Shown: positions 34,751-37,687 of the stretch, in pieces
How positions within the stretch are numbered: the first letter of the stretch is position 1
Layout: every line of letters starts with the position of its first letter
From: Saccostrea echinata
Lineage: Eukaryota
Reading direction: 5' to 3'
NCBI RefSeq assembly: GCF_033153115.1
Contig: NW_026889778.1
Span: 16,926,001-16,990,000 of the forward strand
Length of the DNA stretch: 64,000 bases
Translations under genes and position numbers: made by a program
The notes under the pieces: model-generated
Seen by the model: only the letters and a program-made list of their open reading frames with translations
Database searches by the model: none
What the model was told of the DNA's origin: nothing

Positions 34751-34909
34751 GAATAATAACAATTCTTATCACCAATGAACGATTTATCATAATAAGATTA
34801 ATCAAATATATATAAATATACAAAATACAAAATGCAAATAACTCCCAAGGTGATTCACTGAATGTTACAGTAACTCAGACCTATGACTTACTCTTAGACG
34901 TCCTTTTTA

Positions 34910-34953
<44 letters not shown>

Positions 34954-35336
34954 CAAACCTATATATTAAAATAATTCATGGTTATTCTCAATTCCCTGTA
35001 ATTTGTTTTATTTAAAACAATTTGCCTTATACTATATCTGTTAATTATGGCTCCAATAACCTTATACTATATCTGTTAATTATGGCTCCAATAACTGTAA
35101 ATCCTTGGAGTACTGTTACGTCATACTGTGAAAAATGACGTCATATCAACAGATAAGAACCCTGTCAAGTCGCCATGATGTAATTCAATATAGAAGAATA
35201 TAGAAGACTTAAGGTAAGTACCTTATCAAGATATAAATGTAGTGTTAGATATATTACAAAACTTATATATTACACGTGCACTTTTTTGTTTATACACTAG
35301 AAAATAGAAATACACATCTACCGGAAATGGCGAGGA

Positions 35337-35425
35337 CAGGTTTGTCGTGCTAGAATGAATGGCCAATTCATTACCGAAACAAACCTGCATGGAGTTTGGG
35401 ACTAGCACCTGATGAGAGTTCCCTC
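35337..35425 (+). ncRNA. Putative hammerhead ribozyme with permuted (pseudoknotted) strand order, unit 1; predicted cut after 35346
   Basis: CAGGTTTGT-C-GTGCTAG ... C-GAA-ACAAACCTG ... CTAGCAC-CTGATGA-G: full core, 9-bp stem III, 7-bp stem I, G10.1-C11.1 pair. Confidence 0.7.
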
Positions 35426-36332
35426 ACAAAATTACTGGCATACTAGCCTATATCTTTTGGTATTTTTGGCATATTTTAGAATAATAAATACGCTATAGCA
35501 CAAACTCAAAATTTCTAAATTTTATTTGGCATAACTCCTTCCTGGTCGTTTTCATTATTACAATTTTCTTTTTTGTTCACAAATACGCACATATACAAAT
35601 TCCTATAAACTATCATAATCAAACAATGTATAATACTGTATGTTGGTTTTTTAGAATTATTTGTTACCTACTTACCAGAATAATAGCATGCTTTTAGAAA
35701 TATGTATAGTATTATTTGCTAATTAAAAAACAACTTATAAAATCTACATTATTGTTTAACGTTGAGTGACCAGAATCGCAGTATACATTGAAAAATTTAG
35801 AAAGTTTGTTAACACCCCCCTATTTTCAGTTTTGTCTATAACTTGTGTTAAATATTTATTGAACCCCCCTCCCCTTTTTTCGTTACTATTTAAATTGTAT
35901 CAACTCTCATCTTTATTTTCCCTGTTTATTGAGTTGACATTATACTACATGTATGACCGGCCACCAAAAAATTGATTGCTTCAGTCTCCTCGGCTGGGTG
36001 ACGTGGTGGTGTGTTTATTTATTTATAATTTATTTATTTTTTAAAAGATAAAAATAGATATACTAAGTATATCTATACGGTCATGCAGAGGCCTGCCCAT
36101 CTCTACTTCACTAAGGAAGTGTTGAGGAGATGGAACAGTGATTTGAGGCTGGAAGCATAAGGTGAACAAATAAGAATAATAACAATTCTTATCACCAATG
36201 AACGATTTATCATAATAAGATTAATCAAATATATATAAATATACAAAATACAAAATGCAAATAACTCCCAAGGTGATTCACTGAATGTTACAGTAACTCA
36301 GACCTATGACTTACTCTTAGACGTCCTTTTTA

Positions 36333-36384
<52 letters not shown>

Positions 36385-36767
36385 CAAACCTATATATTAA
36401 AATAATTCATGGTTATTCTCAATTCCCTGTAATTTGTTTTATTTAAAACAATTTGCCTTATACTATATCTGTTAATTATGGCTCCAATAACCTTATACTA
36501 TATCTGTTAATTATGGCTCCAATAACTGTAAATCCTTGGAGTACTGTTACGTCATACTGTGAAAAATGACGTCATATCAACAGATAAGAACCCTGTCAAG
36601 TCGCCATGATGTAATTCAATATAGAAGAATATAGAAGACTTAAGGTAAGTACCTTATCAAGATATAAATGTAGTGTTAGATATATTACAAAACTTATATA
36701 TTACACGTGCACTTTTTTGTTTATACACTAGAAAATAGAAATACACATCTACCGGAAATGGCGAGGA

Positions 36768-36856
36768 CAGGTTTGTCGTGCTAGAATGAATGGCCAATTC
36801 ATTACCGAAACAAACCTGCATGGAGTTTGGGACTAGCACCTGATGAGAGTTCCCTC
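36768..36856 (+). ncRNA. Putative permuted hammerhead ribozyme, unit 2; predicted cut after 36777
   Basis: Identical to 35337..35425, 1431 nt downstream. Confidence 0.7.
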
Positions 36857-37687
36857 ACAAAATTACTGGCATACTAGCCTATATCTTTTGGTATTTTTGG
36901 CATATTTTAGAATAATAAATACGCTATAGCACAAACTCAAAATTTCTAAATTTTATTTGGCATAACTCCTTCCTGGTCGTTTTCATTATTACAATTTTCT
37001 TTTTTGTTCACAAATACGCACATATACAAATTCCTATAAACTATCATAATCAAACAATGTATAATACTGTATGTTGGTTTTTTAGAATTATTTGTTACCT
37101 ACTTACCAGAATAATAGCATGCTTTTAGAAATATGTATAGTATTATTTGCTAATTAAAAAACAACTTATAAAATCTACATTATTGTTTAACGTTGAGTGA
37201 CCAGAATCGCAGTATACATTGAAAAATTTAGAAAGTTTGTTAACACCCCCCTATTTTCAGTTTTGTCTATAACTTGTGTTAAATATTTATTGAACCCCCC
37301 TCCCCTTTTTTCGTTACTATTTAAATTGTATCAACTCTCATCTTTATTTTCCCTGTTTATTGAGTTGACATTATACTACATGTATGACCGGCCACCAAAA
37401 AATTGATTGCTTCAGTCTCCTCGGCTGGGTGACGTGGTGGTGTGTTTATTTATTTATAATTTATTTATTTTTTAAAAGATAAAAATAGATATACTAAGTA
37501 TATCTATACGGTCATGCAGAGGCCTGCCCATCTCTACTTCACTAAGGAAGTGTTGAGGAGATGGAACAGTGATTTGAGGCTGGAAGCATAAGGTGAACAA
37601 ATAAGAATAATAACAATTCTTATCACCAATGAACGATTTATCATAATAAGATTAATCAAATATATATAAATATACAAAATACAAAAT

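Follow-up and report, generated by a model that had tools for sequence, protein, structure and literature searches.

The window analysed here is a stretch of 64,000 nts from the oyster Saccostrea echinata (assembly GCF_033153115.1, contig NW_026889778.1, positions 16,926,001 to 16,990,000 of the forward strand). It contains a non-coding tandem array located between a truncated cytochrome P450 gene and a tyrosine-recombinase (YR) retroelement, with the following features in and around the array:

31400..32420, plus strand: decayed Naiad-type Penelope relic, reverse transcriptase (RT) end and 3′ UTR, similar by eye to published oyster Naiads
33539..34750, minus strand: cytochrome P450 gene truncated at the left end of the array, without the first 101 codons of its orthologue
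34751..37687, plus strand: whole array, an 83-nt leftover and two monomers, by self-comparison
34751..34833, plus strand: 83-nt 3′ piece of a third unit, a pseudo-LTR-like leftover at the left end, probably truncated
34834..36256, plus strand: monomer 1, 1423 bp, by self-comparison
35025..35095, plus strand: internal duplication of 35 bp, found again in unit 2 at 36456-36526
35116..35143, plus strand: two CRE-like ACGTCA motifs (35116 and 35136), a putative internal promoter
35211..35219, plus strand: 5′ splice donor AG/GTAAGT with the exon end at 35213, by motif search
36034..36183, plus strand: segment of 150 nts with the strongest predicted structure in the unit (-38.2 kcal/mol; z -4.6 relative to 40 crude shuffles)
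36257..37687, plus strand: monomer 2, 1431 bp, whose right end (37687) is equivalent to 34833
37688..44262, plus strand: YR retroelement, not part of the unit, with three open frames (gag-like, 38894-40057; RT/RH, 39792-41588; YR, 41492-42496)

The array (34751-37687, 2937 bp) is the sum of 83 + 1423 + 1431 bp, the first 83 bp being present three times, and the comparison of 34751-36256 with 36174-37687 reveals no mismatch and a single 8-nt gap in a T-run (33 versus 41 T). The original prediction of two-plus head-to-tail units without any ORF above about 70 aa is thereby borne out, the longest stop-to-stop frame among the six frames being 69 aa and the longest from a Met 54 aa. The monomer that it proposed, 35347-36777, is indeed 1431 nts long, as GUC sites end at 35346 and 36777; the unit itself is better delimited as 34834 to 36256, with the 83-nt leftover on its left. 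The array meets the P450 gene at its left end with a 1-nt shared G. Within the unit, the splice donor is the sole AG/GTAAGT on either strand. A 23-nt near-perfect palindrome (36054-36076), located about 100-200 nts ahead of the fixed right end described below, is a candidate RT recognition site.

The truncated P450 (92% identity to the orthologue P0007) is one of three intronless-looking CYP1-like P450s on the minus strand, the others being intact (24407-25984, 87% identical to a Saccostrea protein) and decayed (28905-29272). On the right, the YR element ends in identical 284-bp direct repeats (43262-43545 and 43979-44262) separated by a spacer which has no upstream copy, hence the array joins two truncated sequences. 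The 5′ region of the YR element contains an 83-bp tandem repeat (5.3 copies), and a possible splice acceptor lies just ahead of the gag-like ATG near 38945. The unit does not match the split direct repeats, and its interpretation as a terminal repeat of a Ngaro/PAT-like YR element was rejected. The intact RT of this element, which had been proposed as a helper, was also rejected in this role because neither the element nor its terminal repeats have any sequence in common with the unit. The Penelope-like relic at 31.4-32.4 kb, the other helper suggested, is defunct and does not resemble the unit at the DNA level. At 32255-32340, this relic retains the structured 3′ motif of published bivalve Naiads, consisting by eye of a palindromic hairpin and covarying stems. 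Elsewhere in the window, a Harbinger-type transposon contains convergent frames for a DDE_Tnp_4 nuclease (12491-13672, plus strand) and a Myb/SANT protein (14858-15403, minus strand). On a larger scale, the window holds a 39.06-kb duplication (1-24944 versus 39061-64000; 99.95% identical, 4 substitutions and 4 gaps), which may be either a recent duplication or an assembly overlap, and an N gap at 32854-33015. In the simplest account, the array would have inserted at the junction of a 36-kb tandem duplication, keeping the three P450 genes together; alternatively, a deletion combined with a scaffolding overlap at the N gap may explain the array junctions.

Each unit contains one CUGAUGAG core on the plus strand (35409 and 36840), in agreement with the earlier claim of one hammerhead core per unit on the strand of the YR element. 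The predicted ribozyme is composed of the following parts:

35337..35353, plus strand: block S, with the 5′ strand of stem III (35337-45), GUC and the 5′ strand of stem I (35347-53); predicted cut at 35346/35347
35354..35372, plus strand: hairpin of 7 bp, almost palindromic, separating stems I and II (-3.8 kcal/mol, with pairing probabilities of 0.86-1.0)
35373..35387, plus strand: block G, with ACC, GAAA and the 3′ strand of stem III (35379-87), by fold prediction
35398..35425, plus strand: helix bridging stems I and II, together with block C; the bridge pairs 35398-401 with 35419/20-22/23
36768..36856, plus strand: second, identical hammerhead; predicted cut at 36777/36778

Block C comprises the 3′ strand of stem I (35402-08), CUGAUGA (35409-15) and a weak stem II strand, GAGU (35416-19), so that CUGAUGAG with the preceding stem I strand spans 35402-16. 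The cores are full and the predicted helices measure 9 bp (stem III), 7 bp (stem I), 7 bp (hairpin) and 4 bp (bridge). When stems I and III were scored around cores on both strands of the first 39 kb of the window, with G-U pairs allowed, only 1 of 4627 dinucleotide shuffles equalled the 9-bp stem III and 7-bp stem I, indicating that the hammerhead pattern is not due to chance. Stem II is poor, with a G-C pair, a bulged A and then one or two pairs, and an upstream strand (35323-30) could pair with the stem II bases at the expense of the hairpin. The folding z-score of -1.45 was obtained with a nested fold, which cannot represent the pseudoknot. Self-cleavage is predicted at 35346/35347 and 36777/36778.

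The presence of a hammerhead had thus been correctly recognized, while its rare architecture had been missed: the blocks follow the order site, GAAA, CUGAUGA (S-G-C), a non-circular permutation distinct from types I, II and III. Rfam returned no match at the gathering score over the whole window and none at E<=10 over 34700-36300. Hammerheads of type SGC were validated in vitro and, according to the available parts of the report, were found only in metatranscriptomes and in none of the genomes of known organisms (Eckert 2023, PMC10085705). The oyster ribozyme resembles these RNAs (HRIMA-1 and its variants, as described there) in its S-G-C order, its intact cores, its GUC and the helix that connects stems I and II at their far sides; CUGAnGA, GAAA, NUH and the G10.1-C11.1 pair are all present, stems I and III (7 and 9 bp) exceed the minimum of 4 bp and the I-II bridging helix has 4 bp. 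It departs from the published descriptor in its hairpin linker of 19-22 nts, where at most 8 nts are allowed, and in its bulged stem II, where at least 2 unbroken pairs are required beyond the G-C. Hence, the descriptor would miss the hammerhead of the oyster unit, which is a variant of the SGC class and not HRIMA-1. In the SGC RNAs described in the available parts of Eckert 2023 (PMC10085705), the I-II linker is about 3 nts long and stem II is regular, whereas the hairpin of the oyster ribozyme creates a four-way junction, its stem II is short and bulged and it resides in animal DNA.

A pattern scan of metagenome contigs produced 30 matches, of which a single one, L040, has the same layout, with a hairpin between S and G, then C, and a bridging helix. 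Its score is 26, while only 4 of 20,400 motif-fixed shuffles reach 20. When L040 is compared with the window, every one of the 31 cells is paired, and both partners have changed in 5 of 16 pairs; this comparison involves two sequences, with five stem III pairs fixed by the pattern. The L040 hammerhead (895-1000, minus strand) has a 9-bp bridge helix and lies in a 1140-bp non-coding contig with a short direct repeat. The other 29 matches are chance-like, and by BLAST none of the 30 resembles the unit. Among viral loci, the pattern scan detected a convincing SGC fold in 0 of 21 and 0 of 112 (best 3+4 bp), and the exact-stem pattern has no occurrence across the prokaryote genomes scanned. Searches of the open-access literature yielded no description of permuted hammerheads from either retroelements or animal genomes.

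To follow the unit outside of the assembly, contigs of four public sequencing runs (X1, X2, X3 and X6), guessed to be RNA, were compared with 33100-36173. The P450 gene is unbroken across 34751 in three of the four runs (X2, X3 and X6), with codons matching the orthologue, and the P450/unit junction of the window appears in none of the four. Because X2, X3 and X6 also contain the unit or part of it, the unit lies elsewhere in those genomes, although heterozygosity may also explain this pattern. Contigs of X1 and X2 exit the unit at 34833, which corresponds to its right end in the window, and continue into a different flank; both flanks start with AT. The right end is thus shared by two loci and the left end is seen at one. 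X3 record 14 spans the head-to-tail junction 34833/34834, with 70 nts on its shorter side, and X1 records 2 and 6 also cover it. As this junction recurs in two studies, with two organism labels, the unit constitutes a fixed entity rather than the result of random 5′ truncation. The contigs close the unit, in a manner compatible with both a circle and a tandem. The 35-bp duplication, present in both units of the window, is missing from the X1, X2 and X3 contigs, and both units thus derive from one template. A diverged copy extends over the ribozyme in X3 record 17, with 11 differences in 126 nts (35335-35460). Finally, four contigs of X1 and X3 leave the unit at 35213 or 35215 for sequences absent from the window. 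These exits occur at the only AG/GTAAGT of the unit and, read as splicing in runs guessed to be RNA, indicate transcription of the plus strand. The contigs contain no splice joint within the unit, and a possible acceptor at 35829 is without support. The unit therefore belongs to a dispersed, probably transcribed mobile family. The original interpretation as a mobile, retrozyme-like repeat is supported by the empty allele, the second flank and the diverged copy; it had overlooked the splice donor and the shared right end, and these two features, the latter common to two loci, point to Penelope elements of the Naiad type.

Metazoan non-LTR retrozymes contain type I hammerheads, with units of 350-390 bp in mussels (Cervera and de la Pena 2020, PMC7229834; Li, Clavereau and Pollet 2026, in the parts available). 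Over the available text of the latter preprint, retrozyme units range from 51 to 972 bp, in a search for periods limited to <=1000. Similar to these elements, the oyster unit forms non-coding head-to-tail repeats with one hammerhead per unit, here in two consecutive units, is low in GC and is dispersed in several copies. A dependence on Penelope elements was proposed for metazoan retrozymes in the same two sources and is likewise proposed for the oyster unit. By contrast, the oyster unit is 1.43 kb long, carries an SGC ribozyme unmatched in Rfam instead of a type I hammerhead and has a splice donor which is apparently used. Circles were demonstrated for metazoan retrozymes, whereas the oyster unit is known from DNA and contigs. 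By analogy, the unit would work like a retrozyme, yet it is no member of the group as defined.

Naiads dominate bivalve genomes and were described, in the available parts of the report, as devoid of canonical hammerheads, with half cores 35-50 nts apart in eight cases (Craig 2021, PMC8557442). The Naiad consensi of File S5 of this report were parsed by eye from motif contexts and record ends, in which line breaks may hide motifs. In this material, 17 of the 54 published consensi appear to end in foldable permuted hammerheads, in three layouts. Six records have the order C-S-G. Another four, in the order S-G-C, possess a bridging helix and extra nucleotides inserted between stems I and II: Naiad_Smim, its preceding record, Naiad-1_Dst, in which the 10.1-11.1 pair is non-standard, and the record before Naiad_EuTe, likely an ostracod record. 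In the remaining seven (three from Acropora, two from Octopus, Naiad_EuTe and one further record), the stem II strand seems to be drawn from upstream of block S and no G follows CUGAUGA. The core is then open after A9, between A9 and G10.1, a layout outside the six orders of Eckert 2023 as available. Naiad_Smim and the record preceding it, both from spider, show by eye the succession of ACGTCA, donor, ribozyme and 3′ end, which is the order of the oyster unit, where the donor ahead of the ribozyme is backed by contig joins and the promoter is putative. In the record before Naiad_Smim, U3 and A8 replace C3 and G8, again by eye, forming a compensated core pair.

The likeness between the unit and Naiads also includes partial tandems, 5′ truncation, which is probable in the unit, AT-rich ends and abundance in oysters, as far as Naiads are described in PMC8557442. 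Several Naiad 3′ UTRs have the ribozyme layout of the unit by eye, which in two of these UTRs is preceded by a CRE-like motif and a donor. The differences are that Naiads encode an EN-RT, while the oyster unit lacks ORFs and no sequence relationship to them was detected, that bivalve consensi end in another structure, and that the ribozyme lies 830 nts from the right end of the unit versus 0 to about 300 nts in the Naiads inspected. By eye, neither the last 600 nts of 10 bivalve Naiad 3′ ends nor Naiad_Ppla contain a hammerhead core, and the unit has no similarity to the 10 bivalve ends in File S5. An alignment of the Naiad RT end against viral and genome contigs retrieved no loci with flanks, and no autonomous partner of the unit emerged from the window relic, the bivalve ends or these contigs. 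Since the bivalve ends are coreless, the relic is unmatched and no locus was retrieved, the link to Naiads is one of architecture and not of sequence.

Taken together, the array probably consists of copies and a stub of a non-autonomous retroelement of the Naiad type, a large retrozyme that would depend on Naiads for its mobility. Transcription of the plus strand would start from the putative internal promoter at the CRE-like motifs of unit 1 and run through both ribozymes. The RNA would then be either spliced at 35213 into downstream exons, as the joins in contigs suggest, or cut at the predicted sites 35346 and 36777, releasing the monomer 35347-36777 with 5′-OH and cyclic-phosphate ends, which, by retrozyme precedent, could be ligated into a circle. 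An RT/GIY-YIG protein acting as helper would initiate at a constant internal position, 910 nts past the cut, thereby producing the common right end, and would run about twice round and stop 83 nts further. This step is modelled on PAc, the Poseidon element of the green anole, in which internal RT start sites downstream of the hammerhead fix the insertion ends in vitro (Frangieh 2024, PMC11167929, available parts); PAc is autonomous and starts about 90 nts after the cut, versus 910 nts in the oyster unit. The copy would have landed at a break between the 3′ part of the P450 gene and the 5′ region of the YR element, probably the 36-kb tandem-duplication junction. For more than one unit to be copied, the template would have to be a circle or an uncut multimer, or a template jump would have to occur; unequal exchange may also have added a unit.

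The same mobile Penelope-derived unit could have spread with a ribozyme that is inactive or dispensable here, the 2.06 units arising without circular RNA from an uncut multimer or from unequal exchange after the insertion of 1.06 unit. The weak stem II speaks for this unlikely alternative, and the identity of the units is compatible with either route. In PAc, ribozyme mutants left insertion in vitro unaffected and no reads ended at the cut site in the data available (PMC11167929), and only 1 of 9 predicted retrozyme dimers was cleaved in vitro in the available parts of Li 2026. An inactive ribozyme is nevertheless difficult to reconcile with the intactness of all core bases and of the other three helices, and with the recurrence of the layout with different letters in L040 and Naiads, including the U3-A8 replacement.

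The unit could also be the 3′ UTR or pseudo-LTR of an autonomous, undescribed oyster Penelope, left as a truncated ORF-less tandem, in which case the ORF of this element would begin in the 800-nt flank of X1 and X2. This flank opens after 34833 with an ATG and 10 sense codons, and the order of promoter, donor and ribozyme matches Naiad 3′ ends as parsed in File S5. Thirty letters are insufficient to call an ORF, and random 5′ truncation predicts differing junctions, while the window, X1 and X3 share 34833/34834, which makes this reading improbable.

It is still less probable that the mobile ribozyme repeat depends on an RT from outside Naiads, whether encoded by the adjacent YR element, by a LINE or by a different clade of Penelope. 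In favour of this reading, none of the 10 bivalve Naiad ends in File S5 bears this ribozyme by eye, and the YR element has open ORFs and the orientation of the unit. The unit, however, has nothing in common with that element or its repeats and its sense strand has no 3′ poly(A). In addition, the other Penelope clades carry canonical type I hammerheads in the available part of File S2 (PMC8557442).

It is very improbable that the array is non-mobile DNA, duplicated locally or by an error of assembly, in which a ribozyme-like pattern arose by chance. The position of the array inside a 99.95% identical, 39-kb duplication with an N gap and the T-run lengths that vary between copies could have been read in this way, but the public runs contain an empty P450 allele, a second flank, the tandem junction and a diverged copy, and a chance pattern is further opposed by the shuffles. 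This outcome also disfavours the single-locus alternative raised in the original prediction. Spliced leaders are far shorter than 200-400 nts. A gene repeat resembling spliced leaders, whose single exon would be donated in trans to many mRNAs, might be suggested by the tandem arrangement and by the variety of sequences to which the one donor is joined; it is most improbable, as the contigs extend at least 200-400 nts upstream of the donor (X1 record 6 and X3 record 15) and dispersed copies account for the joins in cis.

With the array read as a Naiad-dependent retrozyme, it can be proposed, tentatively and with slightly less than even confidence, that Naiads across animals routinely use non-circularly permuted hammerheads (SGC, CSG and the form with upstream stem II) and give rise to large circular-RNA retrozymes like the oyster unit. 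Non-circular permutations of the hammerhead have so far been reported solely from environmental sequences and one doubtful bacterial case. The oyster copy gives these scrambled ribozymes a host and a job, in an animal chromosome and in a mobile, apparently transcribed element. It also offers a testable answer to the question of why Naiads seemed free of hammerheads, namely that the descriptors used are blind to the scrambled order. Similarly, surveys of retrozymes based on type I hammerheads and units below 1 kb miss a class of elements. For the oyster itself, the unit cuts short a P450 gene of the detoxification type and seems to provide other transcripts with an exon. If the Naiad reading is true, scrambled hammerheads would have a home in animal chromosomes, which would be a possible source of the viroid-like RNAs that originally revealed these ribozymes.
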